Virus record (IMG/VR): IMGVR_UViG_3300038393_001851
Location: 2,145-66,144 of that record
Source of the DNA: a virus
Length of the DNA: 64,000 nt
Direction: 5' to 3' (one strand)
Shown here: positions 20,068-59,300 of the stretch, piece by piece
How positions within the stretch are numbered: position 1 is the first letter of the stretch
How the letters are laid out: the number at the start of each line of letters is the position of its first letter
Notes under the pieces: model-generated
Database searches by the model: none
What the model saw: only the letters and a program-made list of their open reading frames with translations
What the model was told of the DNA's origin: nothing
Program-made: the position numbers and the translations under genes

Positions 20068-20676
20068 ATGAGAAAAGACCTGATCCCCCCGCGCCGTCCG
20101 GTCGTGACGGCAGAGTGCAACCGCTACGGGCTGGACCCGCAGCAGGAGGTGTACGCGCAGCTGCGCGCGTCCGGCCTGCCGATCGACGAATGCGTGCAGC
20201 GCTCGGGCGTGCAGTGCAAAAGCCCGAAGAAGTACGAGGCCAAGAATCCGGCGATCGTGGCGCGCATCACGATGCTGCAGGACGAGGCCTGCGAGCGCGT
20301 GATCGAGAAGATCAAGTTGGACAAGGAATGGGTGGTCAACGAGCTGCTGCGCCAGTACGAGGCCAACGGCAAGGTCGTGAAGGCGATCGACAAGATGGGC
20401 AATGAAACCCACGCCCCGCAAAAGGCCAACGAGGCGATCAAGTGCCTGGAGTTGATCGGCAAGGAGTTGGGAATGTTCGTGGAACGCAAAGAAATCCGAG
20501 TGGGAGCACTGGATGGACTCAGTGATGAAGAACTTGCCCGAATCGCTGCGGAACTCAGCGCCGCAATTGGCTTTAACCCAGGTACTGGCCGAATTGAAGC
20601 GGCGCCGGGACCGGAACAAATTGAGTTTGTACCGGCCGTATGCGAGGCAGAGGGAGTTCCACAACGCGGGGAATAA
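20068..20676 (+). CDS. terS: Terminase small subunit
   Basis: CLELIGKELGMFVER and LSDEEL motifs; upstream of TerL. Confidence 0.8.
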   Translation: MRKDLIPPRRPVVTAECNRYGLDPQQEVYAQLRASGLPIDECVQRSGVQCKSPKKYEAKNPAIVARITMLQDEACERVIEKIKLDKEWVVNELLRQYEANGKVVKAIDKMGNETHAPQKANEAIKCLELIGKELGMFVERKEIRVGALDGLSDEELARIAAELSAAIGFNPGTGRIEAAPGPEQIEFVPAVCEAEGVPQRGE

Positions 20677-21976
20677 GTACCGCGAACGGCTGTTCATGGC
20701 CGGTAACCAGTTGGGCAAGACCTGGAGCAGCGCCTACGAGATTGCGATGCACCTGACCGGGCGCTATCCGGACTGGTGGAAGGGGCACCGCTGGGCCAGT
20801 CCCGTTACCGGCTGGGCCATGGGGGTGACCGGCGAGTCGCTACGGGACACGCTGCAGCGATTGCTGCTCGGGCGCGGCGGCGAGTGGGGCACCGGGACCA
20901 TCCCGGCCGACTGCATCCTCGAGATCAAGCGCGCCCAGGGTATCGCCGATGCGGTGGACACGGTGCTGGTGCAGCACGTGTCGGGCGGGGTGTCGCGGGT
21001 CTCGTTCAAGTCCTACGAAAAGGGCCGGGAAAAGCTGCAGGGCGAGACCATTCACTTTGCCGCCATGGACGAGGAGCCGCCGCTCGATATCTACGTCGAG
21101 ACGCTGACCCGTACCAACGCCACCAAGGGCATCTTGTGGATGACGTTCACGCCGCTTTTGGGCATGAGCGACGTGGTGCGCCGCTTCCTGAACGAGGAAA
21201 GCCCGGACCGCACCGTGACCAAGATGACCATCGAGGACGTGGAGCACTACACGCGCGAGGAGAAGGACCGGATCATCGCGTCCTACCCCGAGCACGAGCG
21301 CAAGGCGCGCGCCATGGGCATCCCGTTCTTGGGCAGCGGGCAGGTGTTCCCGGTGCCGGAATCGTCGATCATGATCGACTACATGGTGCTGCCGGACTAC
21401 TGGCCCAGGATCTGCGGGATCGACTTCGGTTTCAACCACCCGTTCGCGGCCGTGTGGCTGGCGTGGGACCGCGACAACGACACGGTGTACGTGTACGACG
21501 TCTACACCAACAAGGGCGGCACGCCGTCCGTGCATGCCGGGCCGATCCTGTCGCGCGGGCCGTGGGTGCCGGTGGCCTGGCCGCATGACGGCCTGCAGCA
21601 CGACAAGGGGTCGGGGGTGATGCTGTCGGAGCTGTACCGGCAGGCGGGGCTCAACATGCTGCACGAACGGGCGCAGTACGAAGAGGTGCCGGGGGTGACG
21701 GCCGGCGCGCAGAAGCTGCGCTCGTCGGTCGAGGCGGGCGTCATGGACATGCTGGAGCGGATGAAGAGCGGACGGTTCAAGGTGTTTTCGCACCTGGCCG
21801 ACTGGTGGGCCGAGTTCCGCATGTACCACCGCAAGGACGGCAAGATCGTGGCGATCGAGGACGACTGCATGAGCGCCACGCGCTACGCCGTGATGTCGCT
21901 CCGGTTCGCCGCCACGCCGCCGCTGGGGAACCGGCAGGTCAGCCCGACGCGCGACTACAACTGGCGCGTGGGTTGA
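20513..21976 (+). CDS. terL: Terminase large subunit, P22-like
   Basis: AGNQLGKT Walker A, MDEEPP, TFTPLLG, GIDFG, WPHDG, DDCMSATRYA. Confidence 0.95.
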   Translation: MDSVMKNLPESLRNSAPQLALTQVLAELKRRRDRNKLSLYRPYARQREFHNAGNKYRERLFMAGNQLGKTWSSAYEIAMHLTGRYPDWWKGHRWASPVTGWAMGVTGESLRDTLQRLLLGRGGEWGTGTIPADCILEIKRAQGIADAVDTVLVQHVSGGVSRVSFKSYEKGREKLQGETIHFAAMDEEPPLDIYVETLTRTNATKGILWMTFTPLLGMSDVVRRFLNEESPDRTVTKMTIEDVEHYTREEKDRIIASYPEHERKARAMGIPFLGSGQVFPVPESSIMIDYMVLPDYWPRICGIDFGFNHPFAAVWLAWDRDNDTVYVYDVYTNKGGTPSVHAGPILSRGPWVPVAWPHDGLQHDKGSGVMLSELYRQAGLNMLHERAQYEEVPGVTAGAQKLRSSVEAGVMDMLERMKSGRFKVFSHLADWWAEFRMYHRKDGKIVAIEDDCMSATRYAVMSLRFAATPPLGNRQVSPTRDYNWRVG

Positions 21977-25041: not shown

Positions 25042-25275
25042 ATGACAGTCCATACCTGGAACTACCGCGTCCTGCGGCACGGCGAGGGCGATGAAATAAC
25101 CTATGCGATCCACGAAGTGCATTACGAGGACGGCGTACCCAAGTCGTGCAGCAGCGAACCGGCAGCAGTGGCGGCCGAAGATCTGGTGGGGCTGTGGGAG
25201 ACGCTTGAGCTCATGAGTAGTGCTGCAACTAAAAATAAGCCGGTGCTGAATTACGAGGACTTCGGAAAACCATGA
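25042..25275 (+). CDS. Conserved phage hypothetical protein
   Basis: TWNYRV...YAIHEVHY..G.P...S..P. Confidence 0.7.
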   Translation: MTVHTWNYRVLRHGEGDEITYAIHEVHYEDGVPKSCSSEPAAVAAEDLVGLWETLELMSSAATKNKPVLNYEDFGKP

Positions 25276-25544
25276 CCGATAAGCTGACCCCCGAACAGGA
25301 CGCGCTGGCCCTCCGCGGTCTGCACTTCATCCAGACTGTGACCGATATGGCACGCGCGGCGAAGCTGCCGCCCGAATTCGTACTGACCCTGTTTGGCGCG
25401 TTCGCCAAGAAGGTCGTCGATTCTGGCATCGACACCGGGGGCGACCCCGAGGCCGAAATCGAATGGGCCACGCGCGCCTTCCTGCGCGGCATGGGGTTGG
25501 ACGTGGGCCATATGCACCGGATCGACCCAGAGGGTCAGCACTGA
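25272..25544 (+). CDS. Hypothetical protein, paralogue of 24736-25029
   Basis: ATGA overlap; visible similarity. Confidence 0.7.
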   Translation: MTDKLTPEQDALALRGLHFIQTVTDMARAAKLPPEFVLTLFGAFAKKVVDSGIDTGGDPEAEIEWATRAFLRGMGLDVGHMHRIDPEGQH

Positions 25545-25939
25545 TGAGCTGGAACAACATCATACCGGCCGAAGTACTGTTGTACGAGGCCGAGCAGCGC
25601 ACGCGAGCGAGCCGCAACGGGCGCGAAGGCCGCTATCTCGGTCACTGGATGGGTCAGGCCGTGCGCTCGCACCAGTGGCAGCGGCTAGCCCCTGGCTTTC
25701 GCTTCGGATCGGTGGCGGCGCTGTCCGAGTTGATCGAACGCAGTCCTGGCGCCCCGCCCCCGCTACCGCGCGGCTACCTCAGCCGCGAGCGCGTGGCCGC
25801 GATGAACGCGCAGATGCTGGCCATGGCCGACAAGGCTAGGGCGTCCAGCGCGCCGAAGCCGATGGCTAAAGATGTGGAAGAGCTGTGGGAAACGCTTGAA
25901 GTCGTGATGAGTGCCGCGACCAAAGGAGAACCATCATGA
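25544..25939 (+). CDS. SRNxREGRY-motif protein 1
   Basis: SRNGREGRYLGHWMGQAVR; TGATG coupling. Confidence 0.7.
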   Translation: MSWNNIIPAEVLLYEAEQRTRASRNGREGRYLGHWMGQAVRSHQWQRLAPGFRFGSVAALSELIERSPGAPPPLPRGYLSRERVAAMNAQMLAMADKARASSAPKPMAKDVEELWETLEVVMSAATKGEPS

Positions 25940-26016
25940 CCACCAACAAAGACTGGCCCAGCGCCGATTGATGCAGACCCGCTGGTTCACCCACACGGCC
26001 GGAGTGCTGAACGCCT

Positions 26017-26334
26017 TTAACCTGGTGCGCTGTCTGGACGCGGGCGAGTGGGGCTGGGCTGCCCTTTCGTTGTCGGCGGTGCTGATGGTGGCGCGCTGGA
26101 GTCGGTAGCCTTGTCGAACTTGTCGAGCACGGCCAGCACGCGCGCCTGTATCTCGGCGATGCGCGCCTTGCTCGTGTACCAGTGGCGCGGGATGCGCGGC
26201 GGCGGCCCGCCTGGGCGCTCGGCCCACACGGTTAGCGCGGTGTAGGCGCTGGGCGCGACCAGATAGCCATGGGCGCGCGTGTGCAAGCCGTTGTACTTGC
26301 CCACGTAGCGCCCCTCGCGCGCGTTGCGGCTCAC
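26017..26334 (-). CDS. SRNxREGRY-motif protein 2
   Basis: GTG start with GAGG RBS; SRNAREGRYVGKYNGLHTR. Confidence 0.7.
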   Translation of the reverse strand: MSRNAREGRYVGKYNGLHTRAHGYLVAPSAYTALTVWAERPGGPPPRIPRHWYTSKARIAEIQARVLAVLDKFDKATDSSAPPSAPPTTKGQPSPTRPRPDSAPG

Positions 26335-26534
26335 CTCACCTCCATCCGCGCCGCCGTGATCTTCTGGTAGAAGTCCCACAGCGCCTTGCCGATGCGGTCC
26401 ACGTCGTCCTGGAACAGGCCCGCATCCTTGTGGTTTTCGATCAGTTCGCCGAACTGGACCGTCAGCGCGTAGCTGCGGTCCATCAGTTCGTGCAGCCCGA
26501 GCGCGTCGGGCCTGCTAACAGGTTGGTCGTTCAT
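26331..26534 (-). CDS. Small hypothetical protein
   Basis: AAGGAG RBS; HELMDRSY. Confidence 0.65.
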   Translation of the reverse strand: MNDQPVSRPDALGLHELMDRSYALTVQFGELIENHKDAGLFQDDVDRIGKALWDFYQKITAARMEVR

Positions 26535-26824
26535 CGTGGCTCCTTGTGGTCGTGGGCAATGTAGCGCGGGCGGCGCACTGGCAGCGGCATCTTGGCGCGT
26601 GTGCTCATCACTGTCCACGCGACTTCCGCGTCCGCGCCGAGGCGGCGAAACAGGAAGTGGGTGCTGCGCACCGCCTTGCCCTGCCAGCGCCCGACATAGC
26701 GCCCTTCGCGCCGGTTACGACTGGTCATCCTGATGTGGGCAAGCCCGCGCGCGACGGCGCGCAACAGCACGGCCTCGGTCACCGGCTCGTCGTAGCGGGA
26801 ACGTGCCTTGATCGTTTTCATCAT
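26531..26824 (-). CDS. SRNxREGRY-motif protein 3 (alternative start 26728)
   Basis: MTSRNRREGRYVGRWQGKAVR. Confidence 0.65.
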   Translation of the reverse strand: MMKTIKARSRYDEPVTEAVLLRAVARGLAHIRMTSRNRREGRYVGRWQGKAVRSTHFLFRRLGADAEVAWTVMSTRAKMPLPVRRPRYIAHDHKEPR

Positions 26825-26838
26825 TTCGATTCTACCAT

Positions 26839-26991
26839 TTATCGGCGGCACGGCCGCCCGCCGTAGCTGTAGCGCCGGTTCGGCTGTTCCCACGTCGCGC
26901 GCCACCGGCGCATCGCCTGCGCCAGGCGCACGTGGCGTCCACCGATCTTGCCCAGGTAATGGCCCTCGCGCATGTTGCGGCTGGCTGTCAT
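26839..26991 (-). CDS. SRNxREGRY-motif protein 4 (50 aa, below ORF-track cut-off)
   Basis: Manual translation MTASRNMREGHYLGKIGGRHVRLAQAMRRWRATWEQPNRRYSYGGRPCRR; ATGA overlap. Confidence 0.65.
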   Translation of the reverse strand: MTASRNMREGHYLGKIGGRHVRLAQAMRRWRATWEQPNRRYSYGGRPCRR

Positions 26992-27128
26992 CGGCGCACG
27001 AGCCGGAACTGGACGTTGAAGCGGCGGCGGCGGTGCTGCGCGTGCGCTGCGCGCATGGCCAGCGGCACGCGCTTCGGGCGTCCGTTGACCTTGCCGAAGT
27101 AGCGCCCTTCGCGCGCGTTGCGGCTCAC
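26988..27128 (-). CDS. SRNxREGRY-motif protein 5 (46 aa)
   Basis: GTGA overlap, GAGG RBS; SRNAREGRYFGKVNGRPKR. Confidence 0.65.
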   Translation of the reverse strand: MSRNAREGRYFGKVNGRPKRVPLAMRAAHAQHRRRRFNVQFRLVRR

Positions 27129-27394
27129 GCGGCCTCGCGCAGCTTGAACCCCATCACCGCCACCGCCTTGCGCCGCGCGGGTGCCCATTCAACGAAGTAG
27201 CACACGGCGCCATCCCAGATGGCCGGGTGGCTGATCGAGCCGAGGATGACGCCAGGGGTGCCGTCCGGGTGCGCGTCGCCCGGCTCCGAGTTGACCTTGA
27301 CGATGCGGGTGCCGTTGGCTAGCGCGCCCTTGGCCTGCTGGCGGGTGAACATCCCATGCCAGCCCGGCTCGCCTTTGAAGGGGAAGTCCGTCAT
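27125..27394 (-). CDS. Hypothetical protein
   Basis: ATGA overlap; SH3-like GTRIVK...GVILG...YFVEW. Confidence 0.65.
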   Translation of the reverse strand: MTDFPFKGEPGWHGMFTRQQAKGALANGTRIVKVNSEPGDAHPDGTPGVILGSISHPAIWDGAVCYFVEWAPARRKAVAVMGFKLREAA

Positions 27395-27642
27395 GGGAAC
27401 ACCCGCGCAAAGCCGTCCGCGCGCAGCCATGCGCGCACGGTCGTGTCATAGGTCAGGTTGTCCGGGGCGGCCAGGCGGTACTTGGCCAGGTCGTTCGATG
27501 CCTGCGGCATCGACACCCCGAAGTAGTCCATGATGTGGCGCCGCCGCACCAGCCCGAAGTGCTCGATGAGGAAGTCGATAAAGCGCAGCCGCGCCAGCAG
27601 CGCCCCGTTGAGCGACGGCCAGTCGTCAACGCGTTCGCTCAC
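27391..27642 (-). CDS. Stand-alone CapW/BrxR-type winged HTH (no WYL domain)
   Basis: RLRFIDFL....G.V.R..IMDYFGVS.PQAS.DL..Y...AP.NL.YD. Confidence 0.72.
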   Translation of the reverse strand: MSERVDDWPSLNGALLARLRFIDFLIEHFGLVRRRHIMDYFGVSMPQASNDLAKYRLAAPDNLTYDTTVRAWLRADGFARVFP

Positions 27643-28004
27643 AGCGTACCCCGCCCGCGCACGGTGACGACCGGCCCCGCCTTCTCGCCCAAGCGCTTGA
27701 TCGCCGCCTTCAGCCGCTTTTCCTCGCGCTTCAAGGCGTCTACCCGGTCCACCAGTTCGCGCACGTTGGCCATCACCTCGCGGTGGCGCTGCCAGCCGCG
27801 CCGGATGGCCAGCGCTTCGCCGTGCAGGTAGTCGAACGGGTCCAGCACTTGCGCGCACGCGGCGCACGAAACGACCCGCTCGTGCGGATCGACCCGGATC
27901 GCCTCGTGCTGGCAGTAGTGCGGCACGCCCGCCGGGCGCGGGGCGATGGCGACCGGGTTGTCGGGCAGCTCGGGGAAGGCCCGAATGATGTTGTCGTCGC
28001 TCAT
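27639..28004 (-). CDS. Zn-binding coiled-coil hypothetical protein
   Basis: CQH...VSCAAC..LDPFDYL then heptads. Confidence 0.7.
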   Translation of the reverse strand: MSDDNIIRAFPELPDNPVAIAPRPAGVPHYCQHEAIRVDPHERVVSCAACAQVLDPFDYLHGEALAIRRGWQRHREVMANVRELVDRVDALKREEKRLKAAIKRLGEKAGPVVTVRGRGTL

Positions 28005-28019
28005 AGTTTTACCATTGGC

Positions 28020-28048
28020 ATTGTAGGCGCCGTCTCCCCGTTTGTCCA
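28020..28048 (-). promoter_or_regulatory. sigma70 promoter of leftward accessory operon
   Basis: TGGACA-17-TACAAT on minus strand. Confidence 0.7.
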
Positions 28049-28103
28049 CCCGTACCCCCTCGGCCTGTACACAACAGTACAGCCCAGGGGAATACGGCAC
28101 AGG

Positions 28104-28130
28104 GTCGAATAATTTTCCAGACGCGAGAAT
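28104..28130 (+). promoter_or_regulatory. Late promoter motif 1 (portal)
   Basis: GTCGAATAA-N12-GAGAAT. Confidence 0.7.
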
Positions 28131-28155
28131 ACCTCGCGTGCAACCTGGAAAATTC

Positions 28156-30489
28156 ATGGCCCAACCAATCGTCACGACGCCGAAGGCGCTTGCCAAAGGG
28201 CGGATCAGCCGCCTGCCCGACCAGTCCGGCAAGCCAATCAGCAGCGCCTCGCCGCCCGAATTGCGGGACGAAGCGCTGTCGCGTGAAGAGGTCGAGAACT
28301 TCCTGTTTGAGATCAAGCACCAGCCGAACTGGCGCCGCGAGTCCGACCGCGCCGCCGACTACTACGATGGCAACCAGCTGGACCAGGATGCGGTCGATAA
28401 GCTGACCGAACGTGGCCAGCCGCCCCTCATCACCAACCTGATCAAGCCCACGATTGACACCGTGCTCGGGCTGGAAGCCAAGAGCCGTACCGATTGGGTG
28501 GTGCGGCAGGAGGATGATGCCTCGTCCGAGGCCGACCTGGCCGAAGCGCTGTCCGTCAAGCTCAAGCACGCCGAAATCGAGTCGCGGGCGGACCGCGCCT
28601 GTTCCGACGCCTACGCCGCCCAGGTCAAGGCCGGCCTGGGGTGGGTCGAGGTCTCGCGCAACACCGATCCGTTCGATTCCGATTACCGCGTCACCTACGT
28701 TCACCGCCGCGAGATCTTTTGGGACTGGCGCGCCGAGAAGCCCGACCTCTCCGATGCCCGCTACCTGATCCGGCGCCGCTGGCTCGACTTGTCGCACGCG
28801 ATCGCGTTGATGCCTCAGTACGCGCAACTGCTGCGCAATACGGTAGCCGGCTGGAGCGGGTTCGACCCGCTGATGGAGGAGCCAACCGGGCTGGTGCAGT
28901 CGTTCTATACGGAACGCGACACCCGCTTGGACGTTTCTGACTGGCGCGACAACGTGCGCCAGCGCGTATGCCTAAACGAAATCTGGTATCGCAAGTGGGT
29001 CAAGGGCACCGTGATGAGGTTGCCCAACGGGCGCGTGGTCGAGTGCGACTTGGACAATCCTGCACACTGCGAGGCTGTACTGTCTGGTATTGTTGAGGTC
29101 AGGGAAGCAGTGTACCAAAGGGTACGGCTGGCCTGGTATTGCGGCCCGCACTTCCTGTATGACGTGCCAACGCCCTACAGGCACTCGTATTTCCCCTACG
29201 TGCCCTTTTTCGGCTTCCGCGAGGACCAGACCATGGTCCCGTATGGCCTGATCCGTTCGATGATCTCGCCCCAGGACGAGATCAACGCGCGCAAGAGCAA
29301 GCAGCTTTGGCTGCTCAACAGCCGGCGCGTGATCACCGACTCGGACGCCGTGAACGACCACGAGCAGGCGATGCGCGAGATCGCGCGTCCCGACGCTTAC
29401 GTCATCCTGAACCCGAACCGGCGCCCCAATTCGCGCTTCGAGGTCGAAGACGGCACCGCGCTGGCCCCGGCCCAGGGCGCGGCCATGATGGAGGCCAAGA
29501 ACGAGATCGCGGAGGCGTCGGGCATCCACAAGGCGATGATGGGCCAGTCGTCGGCCGCCACCGCCGGCATCGCCATCAATTCGCTGATCGACCAGGGCCT
29601 CACGACCTTGGCGGAGATAAACGACAATTTCCACTTCGCCCGCCGCCTGGTGGGCGAGTGCCTGTTCTCGATGCTGCAGGAGGACCTGTCCAAGGGGCCG
29701 GTGCCGGTCAAGCTGGGCAGCGGCATGAGCGAGCGGGTGGTGGTGCTCAACGACCTGCAGCAGGATCCGCAGAGCGGCCAGCCGGTGCTGGTCAACGATG
29801 TGGCGCGCGTGCGCGCCCGCATTGTACTGGACGACATCAAGTCGACTCCGACCTACCGCCAGCAGGTCATGACCCAGCTTACCGAGATCACCAAGTCGCT
29901 GCCGCCCGAAGCCCAGGCCGCGCTGGCGCCGCTGTGGGTACAGGCCTCGGACCTGCCGGGCAAGGAGCAGGTCATCGACACCTTGCGCCGCGCCCTCAAC
30001 CTGCCGGACGACTCCCCGCAGGGCCGGATGGCGGCCCAGCAGCAGGCTGCCATCAACGCCAAGAAGCAGGAAGACCAGTACGCGCTGGCGATGCAGGAGC
30101 AGCAGGCCAAGATCGAGAAGCTGCACGCCGACGCGGCCAAGCTCATGGCCGACGTGCGCGCGATTGACCGCAACATCGAATCGGTGCCGCACGTGCCGCT
30201 ACTGGATCACCACAACGCCCTCAACGAGGTGCGCCAGGCCGGCCAGGACCAGATCGACGCGCTGCAGGAGCAGATCGCCAAGCTGCAGGTGCAGCTGGCC
30301 AACCGCCAGGCCGAGATCGCGGCCAAGTCGGATTCCGACGTCGTGGCCGGCCGCGTGAAGATCGAGCAGGCCAAGATCAACGCCCACGCCCAGCTCGAAG
30401 CGGCGCGCATGGCCGCCGATTCGGCCAAGGAGGTCGCGCTGGTACACGCCAAGGCCAAGGCGACCGCCGAAAAGAAAAAGGTCGAATAA
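28156..30489 (+). CDS. Portal protein, P22-like
   Basis: DYYDG.Q, RGQPP...NLI.P.ID.VLG, FPYVPF, YGLIR.M..PQDE.N; C-terminal coiled-coil barrel. Confidence 0.93.
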   Translation: MAQPIVTTPKALAKGRISRLPDQSGKPISSASPPELRDEALSREEVENFLFEIKHQPNWRRESDRAADYYDGNQLDQDAVDKLTERGQPPLITNLIKPTIDTVLGLEAKSRTDWVVRQEDDASSEADLAEALSVKLKHAEIESRADRACSDAYAAQVKAGLGWVEVSRNTDPFDSDYRVTYVHRREIFWDWRAEKPDLSDARYLIRRRWLDLSHAIALMPQYAQLLRNTVAGWSGFDPLMEEPTGLVQSFYTERDTRLDVSDWRDNVRQRVCLNEIWYRKWVKGTVMRLPNGRVVECDLDNPAHCEAVLSGIVEVREAVYQRVRLAWYCGPHFLYDVPTPYRHSYFPYVPFFGFREDQTMVPYGLIRSMISPQDEINARKSKQLWLLNSRRVITDSDAVNDHEQAMREIARPDAYVILNPNRRPNSRFEVEDGTALAPAQGAAMMEAKNEIAEASGIHKAMMGQSSAATAGIAINSLIDQGLTTLAEINDNFHFARRLVGECLFSMLQEDLSKGPVPVKLGSGMSERVVVLNDLQQDPQSGQPVLVNDVARVRARIVLDDIKSTPTYRQQVMTQLTEITKSLPPEAQAALAPLWVQASDLPGKEQVIDTLRRALNLPDDSPQGRMAAQQQAAINAKKQEDQYALAMQEQQAKIEKLHADAAKLMADVRAIDRNIESVPHVPLLDHHNALNEVRQAGQDQIDALQEQIAKLQVQLANRQAEIAAKSDSDVVAGRVKIEQAKINAHAQLEAARMAADSAKEVALVHAKAKATAEKKKVE

Positions 30490-47368: not shown

Positions 47369-50300
47369 ATGACGATGGCGACTGGCTGGCTCAACGACAA
47401 CGAACAGGGCAAGCCGCGCGCTCCCGAGACGGGCTGGCTGGGGGACGTGCAACCGAAACTGGAGCCGGCACCGGAGCCGGACAGCGAGGACGATAGCCCC
47501 GCCAGCATCGACCTGAGCGACCGCGCCTCGGTCGTCAACGCCGTCTACAACGCCATCATCAAGCAGGAGAGCGGCGGCAACGACCGGATCGGCAAGAGCG
47601 TGAATGGCGCCATCGGGCCGGGGCAGGTCATGCCCGGCACCTTCTCGCGCTTCGCCCGGCCGGGCGAAGTCATCACCAACCCCGCCGATAACCGCCGCGT
47701 CGCGCAGCGCTATGTGGACTACCTGTACGACAAGGCGGGCGGCGACCCGGCCAAGATGGCGGCCGGTTATTTCTCTGGCGAAGGCAACATCGGCACCCAC
47801 AGCCCGTTCAAGCAGGATCTGCGCGACGGCAACGGCACGCGGGTTTCGGCGTATGTGGCCAGCGTGATGCGCCGGCTGGGCCAAGGCGGCGACACGCCGA
47901 TCGAGGCGGCGCCGACCGAGGCGGCGCCCACGCAGGGGCCGACCTGGGCCGAGGTGACGAAGCGTGATGCGTTCCAGGCCCTGAGCGAGCCGCTGCGCGA
48001 AGTGGCGCGCGCCGAGTATTTCAACACGTACGTGGCGCCCAGCCTCGCGCCAGGCCAGCTGGAAGCCGCCAAGGCGGCCTTCATGGAGCAGAGCCGCGCG
48101 GCCGACTACCAGCCGCCCAGCCTGATGGACAAGGTGATCGGCGGGCTGAAGTCGGCCGGCGAAGACGTGTATCGCTGGGCCACGCACCATGGGAAACCGG
48201 CGCGCCCGTCCGTGCAGCCCGAGTACATGGCGCAGATGCGGCGCACCGCTGGCCCGGCGCAGAACTTCAATGCCAGCATGGAGCGGGACGACTACGCCCG
48301 TCAGTTCCTGGCGAATAACCCGCAGGCCAGCCAGGACGCGTTTGCGGTGGCGATGGCCCAATACGACCAGGCGCAGGCGGCACGCTCGAAGGAGCGGGCC
48401 GAGCGCGCGCAGGACCGTTCCAAGCAGCCCGTCCCGTCGCCCGAGGAGTTCTTCAACGCCCGCCTGACCAAAAAACTGCAGAGGCACAGCGAGAAGGTGC
48501 CCGCGATCGTCCCGCCACTGCCAGGCTACACGCCCCCGGATCCGGAGAATTGGGCGCCGCGCAACCGTGGCCATGCGATCCCGGCCGAACTGGCCGGTAA
48601 CGCCGTGGGGCAGTACTTGAACACGGCAATGGGGGTTTTGGCCACCTATAACGCGATGATCGGGAACGACGAGGAGGCGGCGAAGTGGGACAAGGCCCGC
48701 GCCGACGTCGCCAAGAGGCTGCGCGAAGACGTCGGTGGCGAAACCATCCCGAACCGTGTGGCCGGGATGGTGGGCGGGGTGTCGCCAGCCTTGGCGGCGC
48801 CCGAGGCACTGGTGGGGCAACTGTTTTCGAACGCGGGGCTGTTTGCCATCCCGGCGTTCCGGGATACCTACAAGGCCAAGATCGCGCAGGGCCAAAGCCC
48901 CGGATTGGCGGCGGCCCATGCGCTGGAAGTGGCCTCGGTCCTGCTGGCGGCACCGACTGTCGCGACCAAGGGGACCGCCGCGCTGCTCGGCAAGGCAGCC
49001 GAACCAGGCGCGGCCGGCGTGGGGGCGGCGGCCAAGCAGCTCGGCGCGGCGGGTGCCGAGGGGGTGGCCTTTTCGGCGGCGAATACGGCTCTCGACAAGG
49101 GCACCGACTTGCTGGCCGGGCAAAAGAATGACAATCCATGGTTCGACCCGGAGGACATGAAGGTGGCGGCGGGCGGTTTTGCTGCCCTGCGCTCGCCGCG
49201 TGCGCTCGGTATTGCGCTGACCCCATCCGAGGCAAAGCCGCGCGCGCGCACGCTGGACGATGAACTGGCCGATGAGGGTTTTGTCGACCTGGCCGGCCGC
49301 GATGGGACGGGCCGCCGCCCCAGCATGACGGCGCCGCGCCTGACGAATGGCGCCGAACCGCCGTCAGGCGCGCGCGCCGAGCCGACCATGGGGGAGGCGC
49401 CCGAGACCCCGGCGGCCGGGGATGGCCGGGTCGAACCGACCTTGGACGATAACTTTGCGGCCGGCCTGTCGCCCGAGCAGCAGGCGGCTGACGCCAAGGC
49501 GCGCGCCGCGTTCGCCGACCAGACCGGAGACCAGCCGGAGGGGCACGACCAGCTGGCCGCGCAGCTGCTCGACGCCCAGCAGCAGTTCATGGAGGCCTAT
49601 CGCAGCGGCGACAAGGGCAAGTTCGACGAACTGCGCCAGAGCCTGACGCAGACCTTCCTGCCGCTGCTGGGGCCGGACAAGACGGCCGACTACGTGACCC
49701 ACCTGGTGGACGAGGGCGGCCTGCGCAACGGCGCCGGGATCAGTCATCCCCTGTTCGACGAGGCGGGCACCGCGCTCGATGAACAGGCCAAGGGGGAGAC
49801 GCCCGCGACTCCCCCTGTCGCGGAGAAGCCGGCCGCGGACACCTGGCAGGCCTCGCCGTTCGCCCCGCGCATCCAGAAGATGCTGGACGAGCTGCGCGCG
49901 GCGGGCCTGGACGACTACGCCAAGGCGATCGAGAGCGGCGTGCGTGGAGACGCCAAAAACGGCAAGCTGTCCGAGGAAAACACCGCCTTCCGCGAGCGCA
50001 AAACGGCCGAGTGGCTGCTGGCCAAGGCCAACGAAGGCAAGCCGCTGCCAGAGGCCCAGATCGAGCCGATGACGCCCGAGAAGCTGGTCGAGCTGTCGCC
50101 CACGGCGGGGACGCTGCCCAAGCCGATTGTGGATGCGGCGGTGGCGAGGTGGAACGAAGAGGCCCCCAAGCTGGCCAAGCTGGGCTACAAGTACGGGCAG
50201 GTCAACAACGGCCACGCGCCCGAGGCCGTGCAGCAGCACAAGAAGCTCATCGACATTCACATGGCGCTGGAGGGGCTGGCCGCGCGCCGCTACCAGCAGG

Positions 50301-53300
50301 CACGCGGGCACAAGAATCTCAACCCGGACGCGGTGCAGCGCAATGAAGACCGCGCCAGCCAAGTGCTGGGGATCGACACCCGCGCCCATCCGGGGGTGGA
50401 CACCAGCCGCCCGATCACGCTGGGCGCGGGGGTACGCGATCCGGATTGGAAGCCGCTGAAGGGCAAGAAGCCGAAGACGGAGAAGGAGGCCAAGGACCGC
50501 CGCACTGACCTGATGGCGCGGGTCAATGCACTGACCTCGGACGATGTACACGAGCTGCAGGAGCTCATGGGCTTGGGCAAGGGCTATCTCCCGACCAAGC
50601 AGCAGATCAAGCACATCAAGGAGGCCGGGCCGGACGCAATTGAAAAAGGGTTTAAGGCGATCGAGGCCAAGCGCGCGTGGGAAAACGGCATCGCCAAGGC
50701 CGGGGAGAAGTACGGGTTGGTCAAGGTGGACCATCCCGGCAAAATGGGGGTGAACCTGGCGCTGCGCGCGGACAACCAGGCGCCGTTCATCCAGCTCAAT
50801 GCAATGGGAATGAGCGGGGATCATTGGCAATTGCGCCCGCACGGCCTGACGCGCGTCGACCTTAACAAAAAGTGGGGGTGGGAGGACGAGTACAAAACCC
50901 CGACGCTCGATCAGGCTTTGAAAGTGGCGAGCGACATGCTGCGCGAGGACGCCGATACCACACTGCCGGATGAGCAGCTCAAGGCCAACCGCGCTCGTCG
51001 TCGCTCGGAAAGCGATGCGTTTGGCGAAAAGCTGCGGCAAGAGATCGACGCCGAGATCGCCAAGATCGAACGCGAGCGGGAGGCCAAGGCACCGGCGCAC
51101 ACCAAATACACGTTCAAGCGCCTGCTGGACTGGAAGACGCCCGGTCTGCCGAACATCGAGATCCCCGAGGCGCTGGCGGCCAAGGTGCAAGAAACGCTGC
51201 GCACCCGGCCGGATGCCTACAAGCTCAAGAAGCACAGCGATGGCGACACCCGGCTCGACCTGCCGAACGGGGCGCAGATGGCGGTGCACCCGAACGGCGA
51301 GGTAGAACTGCTGGGGGATGCCGAGCACCGCTGGGGCTCGACCATGACCAAGGCCAGCATCAAGCGCACCTTGGAAGGCTGGCTGAAGAACCTGCCGCCG
51401 AAGCCGGACGTGATGCCCGCCGAGCCGGAAGACCTTCTCGCTACGCATACGGCTCAGTTGCAAGCGTCGATCATGCGCAAGCGCGAGATCTTGCGCGAAC
51501 AAGGCCAGCTGGTGGTCCCGCATCCGACCGAGGACGAGCTGCGCAAGGGCGCTGCAGCCATCATGCCGGTCCCGTTCTTCCACATCGCCGGCATGACCGA
51601 GACGGTGGTATACAAACCCCGCGCTGACGGCCTGCCGGAAGCGCCGGGGGGGCGGACCCATGTGTCCGCTCAGCGGTATGAGAACGGCAAGGCGGACCGC
51701 TGGGTGCCGTTCCAGTCGCACCGGATTGATGTTGTCCTGCGCGACGGGAAGCCCTACGCGGTCGAACGGATTTGGGGCGATCCCGAAATGTCGGTGCTGA
51801 AGCCGATCACGGTGCTGGAGAGCGCACCGGGCGGCAAGCCCGAGAAGGCGGCCAAGGCCAAGAAGGAGAAGGAGAAGCCGGAAGTCGACCCCGCCACGAT
51901 CAAGGTGTCGCCGGACTCGCTGTACCAGCCGACGCATAAGTTGTTCGCACGCTTTGCCGAGTTCAAGGTGGATACCCCTTACGGTAAGGATATGCCGGTG
52001 TCATTGTCGGGAGCATTCAATCCGGCAAATTACGAGGCAATCTACGGCGAGCCGGGGGGCATCATCAATGTGCGCACGCCCGTTCCCAATGCTGACGGCA
52101 GCTGGGGGTCGAACGAGCGCGCCGGGGTGATGTACAAGGGCGTGCTGACCTTGGAGCACGCCAAGGACATCGCACGCCGGATCATCGAAGAGGCCTTCGC
52201 CAACCAACCGAAGGGCGGCGCCAAGCCGGCGCAAACGCTGGTCGAGCACCTGCGCGACAAGATCCTGGCCAATGAAATGCCGAAGGACAACGCGGCGCTG
52301 CGCAAGATCGTCGCGGACTTCACCAAGAAGGAAGTGACCCCGGCGCGCATGAAACAGGCGCAGGAGGAGCTGGAGGCGGCGATCGTGAGCGTGGCGCGCG
52401 GCATCGTGGCCAAGAAAGAGGGCGACCGCAGCACCTTCGACGTGCTGCTGCGCCTGTACAACTCGCAGCCCAACCTGAACGTGCGCACCAGTACCAGCGT
52501 GTCCAACCAGGCCTACAGCACGCCGGCCCCGCTGGCGTACCTGGCTTCGCGCCTGGCCGGGATCGGGCCGAAGACGAAGGTGCTGGAGCCGACCGCCGGC
52601 ACCGGCATGCTGCTGATCGGCGCCGACCCGAAGAACGTCACCGCAAACGAACTCAACCCGGAGCGCGCCGCGCTGCTGCGCCGGCTGGGCTTCAACCCGT
52701 CCGAGAAGGACGCGACGACCGAAAACCTGCGCCACGCCGGCTATCCGGTCGATGCGGTTATTGCCAACCCGCCTTTTGGCTCGATTAAAAACGCCAGCGG
52801 CAAAACCGAAAAGCGCGCGATTGACGGATACAAGATTGGCAAGATTGACCATTTGATTGCGGCGCGTGCGCTCGATGCAATGAAGGATGACGGCCGCGCC
52901 GTGCTGATTCTCGGCGCCGATAAAGTGGCGGGCGGCGTCAGTACCGACGACCGCATTTTCATGAATTGGCTGTACAGCCATTACAATGTCACTGGACATT
53001 TCGAAGTGGACGGCGGCCTGTATCAGCGCCAAGGTGCAGGCTGGCCGGTCCGTGTTATTTCGATTAATGGCCGCGTGGCGTCGAATAAGGTGTCACCCCG
53101 CGCCGGGGAAATCCCGCGCGCCATGACGTGGAGCGAGGTATATGACCAGTACACCAAGGCTTTGGACGCCGCGAAGTCCGATGACCGAAACGCAACGCGC
53201 AGCCCTGACCGTGGAAGCAAACCCCGAGCAGGCGATGGACTATCAACTCCACCTGTCGCTGATGGAACAAAAGTTCCGCAAGCTGATTCAGGCCGACCCG

Positions 53301-56300
53301 AAGGAGGCGCAGGCGGCAATGGAAATGTCGGCGGAAGGCGCGCCGGAGCTGTGGACCATCGCGGCGACGGAGCCGATGAAAGCCTGGCCGGCGCAACTGG
53401 CCAACAGCGAGGTGATCTTGAACCTCCTGCGTCTGATCGACTGGAATCTGGAGAACCAGCCGGGGGCGCGACCGACGCCGCCGGAACCGATCTCGCTGCG
53501 GGAGATTCTGGAAGAAATGCTGTAGCCGGCGACGAAGACCTGGGGGCCATGTTCGACGAGATCATGGCCGAGGAGGACGCCAAACTCGCGCCCAGCGGCG
53601 CGGAATCTGCCGTTGGCGGGGGCGGGAAAGGTGGTGGCGGGGGCAAGGGCCGCGCGCCGGCCGCCGCTCCGCGCGAGCGCCCGCCACGCCCGGCCAGCGA
53701 GGCCGCAGCAAGCGCCGCGCGCAATTCGGCCAAGGCGTTCGATGAAGCGATCGACGCCCTGGGAAAACTGTTTTCTGACCCCGGCTCGCTCGGGTCCGGC
53801 CCGGTCTTCAACGAGGAGACCTACGCCCGCGCCAAACCACTTTTTGAGAAGGCCATCGCGCACCTGAAAGAGGCGTGGTCCGACATCAGGGAAGCGATGC
53901 GGGCCGTGATCAAGGCTTTGCGCGAGCGCTTCGGCGCGCAGACAACTGCGCGCATGCGTGAGTACGTGGTGCGCTTCGTGGAGGAGGTGCGCGGGCGCGA
54001 GCGCCAGAAGGCGTCCGAGAAGGACGCCGATCTGGACAACCCGTACCAGGTGCCCTACACCCCGCGCTCGGCCGTCAAGGACCGCGATGTTCTGATCCCG
54101 AAGAACATGGCCGACCCACTGCAGCACGCGCTGGACCGGCTGGAAGACGCGGTGGGGGATATCGACGCCTACGCCGCGCGCGAGCTGGGCTACCCGGACA
54201 CCGACGCGCTGCACAAGGCCCTGATGGGGCTGCAGGTCGATTCGGTGGCCTCCGCGATCTACCAGATCGGCCGCGGCAAGGCCGTGGTGATCGCGGACCA
54301 GACCGGCATCGGCAAGGGCCGCCAGGCCGCCTCGATCATCCGCTGGGCCGCCAAGAACGGTCACGTACCGATCTTCTTTTCGTACAAGCCGGAGCTGTTC
54401 AGCGACATGTACGGCGACCTGGCCGATATCGGCAGCGACGATATCGAGCCGCTGATCATGAACGTGGACCGTTGGATCAGCGGACCGGGAGGGGAGAAGC
54501 TGTACGCCAACAAGGCCGGTGAGCACCGCAACGTGCTGCGCCAGATTGTCGATACCGGGCGCCTGCCGGAGGGGCGCAACGCGCTGTTCTCGACCTACTC
54601 GCAGATCAACGTGGCCAACCTGCAGCGCGATGTGATCACGGCGCTGGCCGACCGCGCCGTCTTCATCTTGGACGAGTCGCACAACGCGGGCGGGGACTCC
54701 AACACCGGCCATTTCATCACTGGCGTGCTGGGGCCGGCAAAAGGCGTGGTGTACCTGTCTGCCACCTTCGCCAAGCGGCCGGACAACATGCCGCTGTACT
54801 TCAAGACCGACATTGGCGACGCGATTCAGGACGACGATACCCTGCAAAACGCGATGGCGGCGGGCGGCCTGGCGCTGCAGACGGTGGTGTCGAACAACCT
54901 GGTCGCGGCCGGCCAAATGTTCCGGCGCGAGCGCAGCTTCGCCGGGATCGAGTTCAAGACCCGCACGGACGTCGCCCACACCGACCAGCACGAGGCGACT
55001 GCGGACAAGGTGACGTCGGCCTTGCGCGCGATTGTCGAAGCCGACAGGATGTTCCACGAGAACTACTTCAAGGCGCTTCAGGACGAGCTGGCGGCGGCCG
55101 GCGCGACGGCGGAGGCGGCCGGCAACGAGGCGCAGGCCAGCGTGGACCACATCGAGTTTTCCAGCGTGGTGCATAACTTTGTGCGCCAGTTGTTGCTCGG
55201 GCTGAAGGCAGATACGGCGGCCGACGCAGCGATCGCGGCGCTCAAGGCGGGCAAGAAACCGTTGATTGCGCTGGAAAACACGATGGGGTCGTTCCTGGCC
55301 AACTACGCCCAAGAGAACATGCTGCGGGCCGGGGACAAGCTGGGCCGCTTCGACTACCGCAACGTGCTGTCGCGCGCGCTGGAACGCACCCGCTACGTTC
55401 AGGAAAAAGATGAGCGGGGCAACAAGCTGCCCAAGCGCTCGATCCCGCTGTCCGAACTGGATCCGGTGACGCGCCGCGCGTACGTAGAGGCGCAAAGCGT
55501 GATCGACGCCCTCGATATCGGGGATATCCCGGTGTCGCCGATCGACTGGATGCGCCACCGCCTGACCGCCGCAGGCTACACGGTGGCCGAGATTACCGGG
55601 CGCGGTTTGGCGGTGGACTACAGCGGCAAGGAGCCGAAGCTGGCCGCCGTCCCGGAGCACGAGCGCAACGACAAGACCGCGACCACGCGCGCCTTCAACG
55701 GCGGCACGCTGGACGCGATCATTCTGAATGTGGCCGGGTCGACGGGTATCAGCCTGCACGCGTCGGAGAAGTTTGCCGACCAGCGCGCGCGCCACATGAT
55801 CGTGGTGCAGCCGGCGCAGGATATCAATGTGTTTATGCAGATGCTGGGGCGCCCGAACCGCACCGGCCAAGTGGTCAAGCCATCCTATGATGTGCTGAGC
55901 GTGAACCTGCCGAGCGAGAAGCGCCCGACCGCGCTGCTGGCCAAGAAAATGAAGTCGCTGAACGCGAACACGTCCAGCAATACCGAGTCGGCCACCTCGG
56001 TCAAGGCGCTGGACATGCTCAACAAGTACGGCGACCAGGTGGTGGGCCAGTATTTGGCCGACAACTTCGAATTGAGCCGTTCCCTGAATATCCTCGATCC
56101 GCTCGACGCCAAAGGCAACGCGGTTCCCGACGTCGCGCGCAAGGCCACCGGGCGCCTGGCACTGCTGCCGGTGGAAGTGCAAAAGCAGGTGTACGCCGAT
56201 CTGGAGGACCAGTACGAGACCCTGATCGAATACCTGAACAGGACCAACCAGAACGACCTGGAGCCGCGCACGTTCGACTTGGACGCCCGCGAAACCAGGT

Positions 56301-59300
56301 CGCAGGTCATGTACCAGGGGCGCGACCCGAGCACGCCGTTTGGCGAAGATGCGGTGTACGGCGAATATTCGATCAAGGCGCAGGGCAAGCCGATGACGCC
56401 CGACGAAATCACCGCCGAGATCACCGGGAACCTGAACGGCCAGACCTCGCTGCAGCATGCCGAGGCGATCGTGGCGAAGATGCGCGCCGACTGGATCGAC
56501 GGGATCGTGCAAGCACGCGCGCGCAATGGGCTGGGAGAGACGTACGACGAGGAGCGCTACCGGGCCGCGCTGAAGGCGGCCGGGTATAGCGAAGATACGA
56601 TCACCATGATGGCGGCCACCGCACGCGGGTGGTATGCATCCGGCAAACAGCCGTCCGTATCGGACTTTGCCAACAGCCTGGCAAGGGCGCCGCTGCCGCC
56701 GGGCGGCACCCGCGTGCAGGACTTCGTGTACGACCACAAGATCGGGACTGCCTGGCGCGTCGATATCAACGGCGAGGTCTACAATGCGGTGATCACCAAT
56801 ATCCGCAGCACGCACAAGGGAACCGGCAGTCCGTACGCGATGAGCAAGGTGCAGGTGACGCTTGCGCTGAACGGCGCGCTGCGCCAGGTGACGCTGCCGG
56901 CCACGCAGTGGGCGCGCATCGAGGTGACCGGGGAGGGGCCGGTCGGGCCGCTCACGATCGGCAAGATGTTCGCAGTGCGCGCGACGAACGAGCGCGACAC
57001 GGCCAAGATCATCACAGGCAACCTGCTGGCGGCCTATGGCGAACTGCGCGGCACGCGCGGCACCATCATCCACTTCACGAAGGCCGATGGCACGATCGCG
57101 CAGGGGATCCTGCTGCCCCGGTCGTTCGACCCGGCGCTCAACCTGGCCAACGACTATCCGCTGCCCACCGCCGCGGCGGCGGCCAAGTTCCTGCGCGAGT
57201 CGACCAACCCGGCGATTACTGACATCGGCATCGCCAACCGCGACCAGACCGTGCGGGTGGTGCCGGACGGGCGCGGCGGGATCACGATTCGCGTGCCGAA
57301 GTCGAAGGCGGCGGGCGGCAAGTACTTCCTGGATAAGCCGCTCTTGGTCGTGACCGGCGACTTCGTGACCCAAGGCCGGTTCATGCAGGTGGACGTGCCG
57401 GCCGCCCGCGTGGTGCAGGCGCTTGATGCGCTGATGAAGAAGACGGCGCTGTACGCGGCGCCCTCGATGAAGGACGAGGCGCGCCAGATCCTGGGCGACC
57501 CGGAGCAGGTGATGCAGGATCTGCCGGACGACACCGGACCCCCGCAGGGCGGGCGCGACCAGCTCGTATGGACGCCGCCCACGGTGCCGGAACCGAAGCG
57601 GGTGGCCACGCTGGCCAAGCTCAAGCAACTGAAGGCCAAGCGCGAAGCCGGCAAGCTGACCGACGCCGAATTTGCGCTGGCCGTGTCGGACCTGATCAAG
57701 GATCTGGAGGACCGCAACGAGACCAAGCAAACGCGCAAGGCAATCAAGGAATGGACCGAACGCGAGCGCGGCGAGCTGTGGATTCGCGAGCGCCTGATCC
57801 GCGCGCGCCGCAAGGGCGAGCTGGACCCGGAGACGGTCAAGTTCGCGCTGTGGGCGCTGGACCAGAACCCGAACCTGGCGCACGACCTGGGTATCAGCAT
57901 CCGCGGCGAGAGCGGGCGCGGCAGCGCGGGCGAGTACAACCCGTTCAGCCGGGTGATCTCGCTGTTCACGGCCGGCGCCAACGACGGCACGGCGGTCCAC
58001 GAGATCCTGCACCACGCCGAGCGCATGATGCCCGCCGAGGTGCGCAAGGGGATTCTGCGCGAATACGCGCGGACGATGGCCCGGTTCCTGATGACGGCCA
58101 CGCCCGAGCAGCAGGCGGCGCTGGCCGACCTGATCGCCGCCTCGATGGGCGACCCCGAGGCGCGCCAACGGGCGCAGCAGGCGTTCCGCGACGGCACCCT
58201 CAACAAGGACGAACACTACCAGTTCACCAACGCCTCCGAATTCTGGGCGGAGAACGCGACCCGGATTCTGGGCGACCGCTTTGCGGCGGCCGGCAAGTCG
58301 TGGGTGGCGCGTGCGCGCCAGTGGCTGCGCGAGCTGTGGGAGAAGGTGAAAGGCTGGCTGGGCAAGAAGTCGGACGCGGCGGTGCTGGCCGGCCTGAAGG
58401 CGGTGATGGAGAGCGACGGCACCCAGCTCCACCCCCACATGCTGGCCAACGCGGACCGCTTCGAGGCCTGGAACAAGATGCGCGACGGGTACAGCCCGTA
58501 TGTCGGGGTCGAGGTCACGAAGATCCCGTCAACCCCGATCGGCGGTTCGCTACGCAAGGTGTTCGTGCCGGCCTCGCGCGGGCCGGTGGCCGAGGAAATG
58601 GCCGGGATCATCCGCGCCAACCTGGGCCAGCAGGCGCGCGAGCGTGAACTGGCCCTCGACCACCTGAAGCAGTTCGCGGCGATGTTCGACCGCCTGCCGG
58701 TGGCCGACAGCTACCAGTTCATCGCGCAGATGGAAGCCGGGGCGCCGCACGGCAATGCCAAGCTGACCGAGGCCGCCACGGCGCTGCGCAAGCTGCTGGA
58801 CGAGCGCCGCGACGCGGTGATCGCGCTGGGCAAGGGCCAACTCGAGAACTTCAACGCCAACTACTTCCCGCATATCTGGAAGCAGAAACGCAGCGCCATG
58901 GACTTCTTCGGGCGCCGCTCGCTGGAGGGCAAGAAGGACTTCCTCAAGCAGCGCACCTACGACACGTTCGCGGCGGGCCTGGCGGCCGGCCTGACGCCGA
59001 TCACCACCAATCCGGTCGAGCTGACCCTGCTGAAGGCGCGCGAGATGGACCGCTATATCTATGGCCAGCGCATTTTCGCCGAGATGAAGCTGGCCGGGTT
59101 TGCCCGCTTCGTCCGGTTCGGCGCCAAGCCCCCGGTGGGCTGGGTCAAGATCAACGACAAGATTGCGAAGGTGCGCCAGTACTCGGCCGTCGAGAAGGGC
59201 TTTGTCGATCGCGGCGACTACTACGCGCCCGAGCCGGCCGCGACCCTGATCAACAACCACCTGTCCAAGGGACTTACCGGCATCGGCGCATTCGACCTGT

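Follow-up and report, generated by a model that had tools for sequence, protein, structure and literature searches.

A conserved SRN head on variable basic tails in an undescribed family of small phage proteins, with five paralogues in one viral genome

In phage antiterminators such as lambda N, the arginine-rich RNA-binding peptide at the N-terminus forms a bent helix. T-even phage internal proteins are described in one report as a diverse set whose only common feature is a capsid targeting sequence (PMC3012670). In HicB, according to one account, the N-domain binds the toxin and a C-terminal ribbon-helix-helix (RHH) or helix-turn-helix (HTH) domain binds DNA (PMC6159526), and a study of Thermus ribosomal protein S16 places R25 and R28 of the β2-β3 loop in contact with helices 7 and 15 of 16S rRNA (PMC2847233). 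Here, we describe five small genes (c1-c5) of a family that we call SRN, which shares features with each of these systems and in which a nearly constant head of ~20 residues is joined to variable tails. The genes lie in positions 2,145 to 66,144 of the virus record IMGVR_UViG_3300038393_001851 (IMG/VR); this 64,000-nucleotide stretch, whose numbering is used throughout, is referred to as the window, and it covers 64 kb of a phage genome that is a single contig of 66,144 bp.

A six-frame scan of the whole genome with the pattern RN.REG[RH]Y revealed exactly five occurrences, all at 25613-27122 of the window, and the looser patterns REG[RHK]Y and G[RH]Y[VLFIM]G.{3}G gave the same five copies and no extra one. 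This agrees with a sequence-only reading of the window, which had noticed five motif copies on both strands within 1.6 kb. c1 (131 residues; 25544..25939, plus strand) carries its head at S23-R42 (25610-25669) and has an N-terminal helix and a tail that belongs to the large 'cluster 0' described below. The other four are on the minus strand: c2 (105 residues; 26017..26334) has a GTG start and its head at 26331-26272, c3 (97 residues; 26531..26824) has its head from S35 (26722-26663) behind a 34-residue N-terminal extension, c4 (50 residues; 26839..26991) has its head at 26982-26923, and c5 (46 residues; 26988..27128) has a GTG start and its head at 27125-27066. The motif had been placed one to three residues after a possible start codon in four copies, which held for c2, c4 and c5 but probably not for c3. 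Judging from the sequence, the start of c3 is most likely the MMKT at 26824, because the 34-residue extension recurs in another family member (P0033), where it stands ahead of a HicB N-domain; the motif is therefore internal in c3, as it is in c1.

c1-c5 are real genes. Their called frames showed a GC content of 0.77-0.89 at third codon positions (GC3) versus 0.53-0.62 at second positions, resembling the portal gene; the antisense frame has equally high GC3, so the assignment of strands rests on the open reading frames (ORFs) and their starts. Starts and stops overlap as TGATG before c1, as GTGA before c2 and c5, and as ATGA where c5 meets c4 and where c3 meets the ORF that follows it. In particular, the GTG of c2 overlaps the stop of an upstream 67-residue ORF and is preceded four bases 5' by GGAGG, the GTG of c5 overlaps the stop of an upstream 89-residue ORF, and the ATG of c4 overlaps the stop of c5. 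Good ribosome-binding sites also precede the M-S-R-N starts of SRN genes in other contigs. c2-c5 and their coupled neighbours make up a minus-strand operon of eight genes, located between those for the large terminase and the portal, that encode, in order, a phrog_1621 protein, an 83-residue ORF, the 89-residue ORF, c5, c4, c3, the acidic 67-residue ORF and c2. c1, with which the count comes to nine, ends a separate plus-strand operon, which is convergent with the minus-strand operon.

Comparison of the five proteins with each other and with the wider family revealed that they are old, distinct paralogues of one phage-borne family. The closest relatives of every copy come from other phages rather than from the window, which means that the five did not arise as recent, redundant duplicates: the nearest kin outside the window were P0019 for c1 (73% identity), P0025 for c2 (45%), P0067 for c3 (70%, in the tail), and P0053 and P0047 for c5 (56% each). 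The extra resemblance between c1 and c2 that had been noted earlier is real, with 39% identity over 113 residues. c4 and c5 are the sole local pair (45% over 47 residues), and the tail of c4 is otherwise related only to a few others. Additionally, c1 looks like a local chimera, as its last ~30 residues (25840-25936, plus strand) match the C-terminal half of the neighbouring 77-residue 'WNYRV' protein (phrog_21321; 25042-25275, plus strand) with 53% identity over 32 residues (E 4e-7).

The family is sizeable. c2 alone as a query against 5.8 billion proteins retrieved only itself, and with a 20-sequence profile 61 of 1974 candidates from the same set scored E<=1. All 61 were metagenome-derived and none had a Pfam domain; the only names they bore were 'hypothetical protein', 'predicted transcriptional regulator' (three RHH-fused forms) or, in one evidently spurious case, 'ribosomal protein L39E'. 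An exhaustive profile search of 1.84 billion representatives gave at least 198 clusters (50% identity) at E<=0.001, 12 of them at E<=1e-10, and all 150 representatives among the matches listed were 42-222 residues long. At the DNA level, a degenerate pattern matched 14 viral contigs, of which 13 had short motif ORFs and one (L009) was a false frame; a second viral scan returned 77 pattern stretches and 21 confirmed loci. Multi-copy loci are frequent, as 12 of 28 other loci hold two to four copies, and the five of the window are the highest count seen. In cultured genomes, the pattern matched once in 185,579 species genomes; this match lay in an Undibacterium prophage, which was also one of three matches at E<=0.001 among 401 Burkholderiales genomes, the other two being borderline.

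The SRN family is undescribed, as judged from a full-text search of the literature for the motif strings and from searches of family libraries, which gave nothing. c1-c5 had no match in Pfam, PHROGs, NCBIfam or PADLOC, and the family as a whole matched no characterised Pfam family. A PDB sequence search with the query A4 gave no match, a search of the ESM Atlas gave nothing above 0.79, and megablast of the region against phage GenBank entries matched nothing.

The division into constant head and variable tail, first proposed from the five copies, holds across the family. The motif is carried by 178 of 184 proteins, a set that includes the five of the window with c3 counted twice, and the consensus is S-R-N-[QKA]-R-E-G-R-Y-[VA]-G-x3-G-x-H-x-R. 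Eight head positions are invariant or nearly so in the 178 proteins: S, the first R, the second R, and the first two G (178 each), E (177), N (175) and Y (167, with F in the other 11). The third R is present in 122, and the later positions G, H and R in 140, 121 and 166, respectively. The head lies within three residues of the Met in 105 of the 178 proteins and has at least 10 residues ahead of it in 57, with at least 25 in 54. When clustered by BLAST at E<=1e-3, the tails fell into one cluster of 55, which holds c1, c2 and c3 and has the consensus G.PDA..AW...S.R...PLP.RRPRY..K, ~15 small clusters and 88 singletons, including c4 and c5. Long helices, Zn-ribbons and Pro-rich loops occur among the tails. 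The proteins are very basic (median isoelectric point 10.5, above 9.5 in 163 of 182), and only 13 of 181 tails are net negative.

Several N-terminal domains were found ahead of the head. In 14 clusters, the head follows a common strand-helix-helix, RHH-like domain, which gave only sub-threshold matches to six RHH families and two RHH structures. In three others (P0018, P0033 and P0068), head and tail follow a HicB N-domain, which matched a HicB adjoining a Pfam-positive HicA with 32-34% identity over 62-65 residues (blastp E 1e-10 to 3e-11); by sequence, the SRN domain in these fusions is in the C-terminal slot of the HicB DNA-binding domain. Ten clusters have a YKGF...AKGAITK extension and three have a Cys-rich start. 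A UPF0150/HicB-like identity of the YKGF...AKGAITK extension was rejected (hhalign probability 0.4%).

Conservation of the head is at the protein level. When 23 distinct heads, taken from the window and from viral loci, were compared at their invariant residues, pairwise differences per codon position were 0.02 at first, 0.00 at second and 0.49 at third positions; the first and second positions of most codons had been fixed beforehand by the search pattern that fetched the loci, and copies not fetched by the pattern, as well as the Ser codon, show the same third-position behaviour. The invariant head Ser was encoded by AGC or AGT in 23 of 23 heads (window and loci L001-L014) and never by TCN, as expected if the residue was never permitted to change. 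Contigs that range from 44 to 68% GC all encode this peptide. Because the differences fall on third positions and the peptide spans contigs of such different composition, the selection is on the protein, as had been suggested from the synonymous codon variation among the five copies, and conservation of the DNA itself, the alternative considered at the time, was not found.

To examine the fold, AlphaFold models of c2 and c3 were made with family alignments. The c3 model had a pLDDT (predicted local distance difference test) of 80, with 88-95 over residues 41-80, and the c2 model had a pLDDT of 83.7. The two models agree in showing a helix of one turn on R-N-x-R-E, followed by a hairpin formed by G-R-Y-V-G-x and G-x-H-x-R, and a helix with a conserved Trp. 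In the c2 model, these correspond to a helix at residues 3-7, strands at 9-14 and 17-21 and a helix at 30-39, followed by a Pro-rich loop and a long helix of 24 residues (56-79). The head is thus predicted to be part of a compact mini-domain packed on the first tail helix. SRN proteins resemble the lambda N-type peptides in having a short Arg-rich N-terminal element on a small phage protein, with nucleic-acid binding being a proposal in the case of SRN; they differ in that there is no sequence similarity, the head is modelled as a hairpin and there are five copies per genome, and no boxB-like target turned up, although no search was aimed at one. An AP2/integrase-type three-stranded DNA-binding fold, suspected from the strand-strand-helix order, was provisionally dropped, as hhalign gave 0.13% against only seven bacterial AP2 sequences and fold searches lent no support.

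With moderate confidence, we favour the reading that SRN proteins consist of a nucleic-acid-binding head on diversified basic tails and are not carriers of a capsid tag. Three functions had been put forward from the sequence, namely a capsid-targeting signal, a docking peptide and a nucleic-acid-binding inhibitor family; the last fits best, and capsid targeting found no support. We infer nucleic-acid binding from the features below; the ligand may be RNA or DNA, and the effect may fall on host or phage. In the proposed mechanism, N, E, G, Y and G of the head would be structural, serving as helix cap, turns and core, and S, the four Arg and His would form an invariant nucleic-acid-binding surface. 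The variable basic tails would add oligomerisation or target specificity, and such differences between tails would explain why a phage carries several non-redundant versions. The core of the head has the same sequence as the β2-β3 loop of bS16 with its rRNA-touching R25 and R28.

We compared the SRN head with bS16 in several ways. hhalign of 25 SRN against 30 S16 sequences from genomes gave a local probability of 57.9% (P 1e-4, 15 columns), pairing mmSRN~REGRYvG with tDsR~~RDGr~IEri, and none of 150 column shuffles of S16 attained the real score (27.25 versus a maximum of 17.6). For example, c3 reads SRNRREGRYV and betaproteobacterial S16 reads SRNRRDGRYI. A DNA pattern for S-R-N-x-R-[DE]-G-R-[YF] matched 78 of 301 genomes, once each, and its reversed control matched none; among 30 of the 78 loci that were examined, 29 were rpsP, one was an SRN gene and no other gene was hit. 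The two families are alike in near-identical 10-12 residues, which in bS16 form the β2-β3 loop and the start of β3 (D-S-R-x-x-R-D-G-R-x-I-E) and are the most conserved block of both. In contrast to bS16, SRN proteins lack the N-terminal strands and the Lys-rich loop, have Glu for Asp and Gly for Glu, add a second Gly-x-His-x-Arg strand, and are encoded by multi-copy phage accessory genes. The N-terminal strands, Lys-rich loop and C-terminal helices of S16 are unmatched, as most SRN proteins begin at the motif Ser and the part behind the motif scores like a shuffle against S16. Whole-domain homology to S16 was ruled out by the scores past the motif and the lack of a Pfam match, both given below, and we read the likeness as a common RNA-contact motif that was probably acquired by fragment capture or convergence, not as membership of the S16 family.

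Several results weigh against a nucleic-acid-binding head. In a PDB sequence search with a profile of the RHH-SRN forms, bS16 was matched on the head at only E 0.6, which is not significant database-wide. The Ribosomal_S16 model (PF00886) matched none of the five window proteins and none of 49 cluster-0 members at E<=10, while the same model gave 70-99 bits in 31 of 31 genomes, and beyond the ~12-residue motif SRN against S16 scores at shuffle level. Fold searches gave no match above noise, whether with Foldseek against the PDB (c2 and c3), against BFVD (c3) or with VIA-align 2, which covered a wide search of ~48,000 chains for c2 and c3 and a re-alignment of Foldseek's top matches for c3; the c2 list was filled by the long C-terminal helix, and the head alone was hardly probed by these searches. 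The His is present in just 121 of 178 heads and is missing in c1, c3 and c5. In the 14 RHH-like clusters, whose RHH calls are sub-threshold, two nucleic-acid-binding modules would stand in one small protein. Finally, an invariant polar surface could equally bind protein.

Some viruses encode whole ribosomal proteins. A further-reaching proposal, distinct from these cases, is that the SRN head is a captured or convergent rRNA-contact loop of bS16. The arrayed phage proteins would use it to dock at the S16 site in the 5' domain of 16S rRNA, to nascent rRNA or to intermediates of 30S assembly, where their varied tails would be displayed, and they would be polymorphic takeover factors that target the ribosome or its assembly. 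We regard this as a long shot. If the head does bind RNA like the S16 loop, the family would give easy access to the ways in which phages interfere with ribosomes or their assembly.

A different explanation is that the head is a docking peptide that binds a single conserved hub protein of host or phage, and the tails supply different inhibitory activities against defence systems or for host takeover. We consider this possible but doubtful. A nearly invariant polar head on more than 100 unrelated tails, and tandem arrays of distinct subtypes in accessory regions, would be expected of such a system, and the occurrence of stand-alone forms next to forms fused behind small DNA-binding-type domains recalls self-regulated anti-defence genes. 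On the other hand, neither PADLOC nor another family library gave a match, the head is modelled within a fold and not as a free peptide, and the motif identity with S16 points toward RNA contacts. SRN proteins are also very basic, unlike most known inhibitor mimics. Should the head bind protein, it would be a ready-made affinity handle for finding the hub. Either way, small phage accessory proteins are the chief reservoir of unknown host-takeover and counter-defence functions, and here a family of at least 198 clusters that is missing from curated libraries combines one invariant surface with many tails and keeps its subtypes side by side.

The fusions also raise the question of a toxin-antitoxin-like module, in which SRN would act as a small toxin, for instance an RNA-binding RNase of the HicA type in strongly reduced form, held in check by the HicB N-domain, the RHH-like domain or the acidic 67-residue ORF. 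The three genuine HicB N-domain fusions and the 14 RHH-like fusions fit this idea, as do the GTGA- and ATGA-coupled pairs of an acidic and then a basic gene in the window, and hhalign sets REGRYvG..G.H on the HicA sequence G....R..GSH. However, the probability of that alignment, made against 21 HicA sequences, was 0.6% and there was no Pfam match to HicA (PF07927), so a HicA-like toxin was rejected as an identity and kept as a minor rival. Moreover, the would-be catalytic His is lacking in 57 of 178 heads, including those of c1, c3 and c5. Bacterial chromosomes and plasmids usually abound in toxin-antitoxin genes, whereas the SRN family is nearly absent from the bacterial genomes searched. SRN proteins are like the HicB/RHH-type antitoxins and regulators in that the SRN domain can follow a HicB N-domain or an RHH-like domain, but c1-c5 carry neither, and SRN has no detectable kinship to RHH, HTH or HicA. 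We rate a toxin-antitoxin role as unlikely.

Capsid targeting, as in the T4 internal proteins, would have the head steer small proteins into the prohead for injection, and we consider it very unlikely. The likeness to T4-type internal proteins lies in a short constant sequence on polymorphic small basic proteins with several per genome; such a tag would look like a constant N-terminal sequence followed by varied basic cargo, and 105 of 178 heads do begin no more than three residues from the Met. The position is also suggestive, as terminase and portal flank the array of the window, and in 10 other loci the array is ~1 kb from the large terminase gene. In those 10 loci, however, it is on the other strand, and the arrays in general run opposite to the packaging genes. 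A T4-type targeting sequence should stand at the very N-terminus of each protein of the set, whereas 57 of 178 SRN proteins have at least 10 residues ahead of the motif, in some cases a folded domain of the RHH-like or HicB N-terminal kind, and in the models the head forms part of the structured core of a mini-domain. The SRN head is further unlike the T4-type signal in being twice as long, and its genes are not co-oriented with head genes. A tyrosine integrase lies beside the SRN gene in L003 and L007. We found that SRN genes occupy accessory positions at operon ends and not head-assembly positions. In seven loci (L013, L061-L064, L070 and L075), a serine recombinase gene of ~190-210 residues adjoins the array on the opposite strand, with a median gap of 84 bases, between the array and the terminase genes, and in five loci, including the window, the 'WNYRV' protein is just upstream of the array.

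Repetition at the DNA level, for instance of a binding or recombination site with one frame open by chance, would account for the window heads being fairly alike in DNA and for an identical 20-base run in the c2 and c5 heads, but is effectively refuted by the excess of third-position differences, the range of GC contents and 198 protein clusters over which the peptide is kept, and the ribosome-binding sites before M-S-R-N starts in other loci.

The genes around the array were also compared with known families. The large terminase (20513-21976) is of the T4 type, and the portal protein (815 residues; 28042-30489) is at most 40% identical to known phage portals, with Achromobacter phage CF418P1 as the best match. 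The first gene of the minus-strand operon (120 residues; 27639..28001, minus strand) belongs to phrog_1621, whose function is not known. It is preceded by a sigma-70-like candidate promoter, TGGACA-17-TACAAT (28020..28048, minus strand; 10 of 12 positions, by consensus match only), which would drive this operon and is divergent from the portal gene. The 83-residue ORF (27391..27642, minus strand) has no match in Pfam or NCBIfam; its homologues, with 52-54% identity over 72 residues, lie in the SRN-bearing contigs L005 and L011, several kb from their SRN genes. Neither the 89-residue ORF directly upstream of c5 (27125..27394, minus strand) nor the 67-residue acidic helical ORF between c3 and c2 (26331..26534, minus strand), which is coupled to both through ATGA and GTGA, had a family match. 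Where the two operons converge, the 3' end of c2 is overlapped by a small plus-strand ORF (25911-26108) that contains a hydrophobic segment (…WGWAALSLSAVLMVARW…).

The late region contains the 9-mer GTCGAATAA six times, always on the plus strand (28104, 30481, 33888, 44892, 47318 and 53080), versus 0.13 sites expected, and none of 100 shuffles attained six. A tie between these sites and the SRN genes was unsupported, as the 9-mer is present in just two of 76 fetched loci. In the Undibacterium prophage (L015, 2638-5762), at least five early genes terminate in …GG[AV]A or …GTA, with every stop overlapping the start that follows, and the ribosome-binding site of each gene seems to lie within the final codons of its predecessor. 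Finally, a single ORF of 4458 residues (47369-60745, plus strand) fills one fifth of the window.

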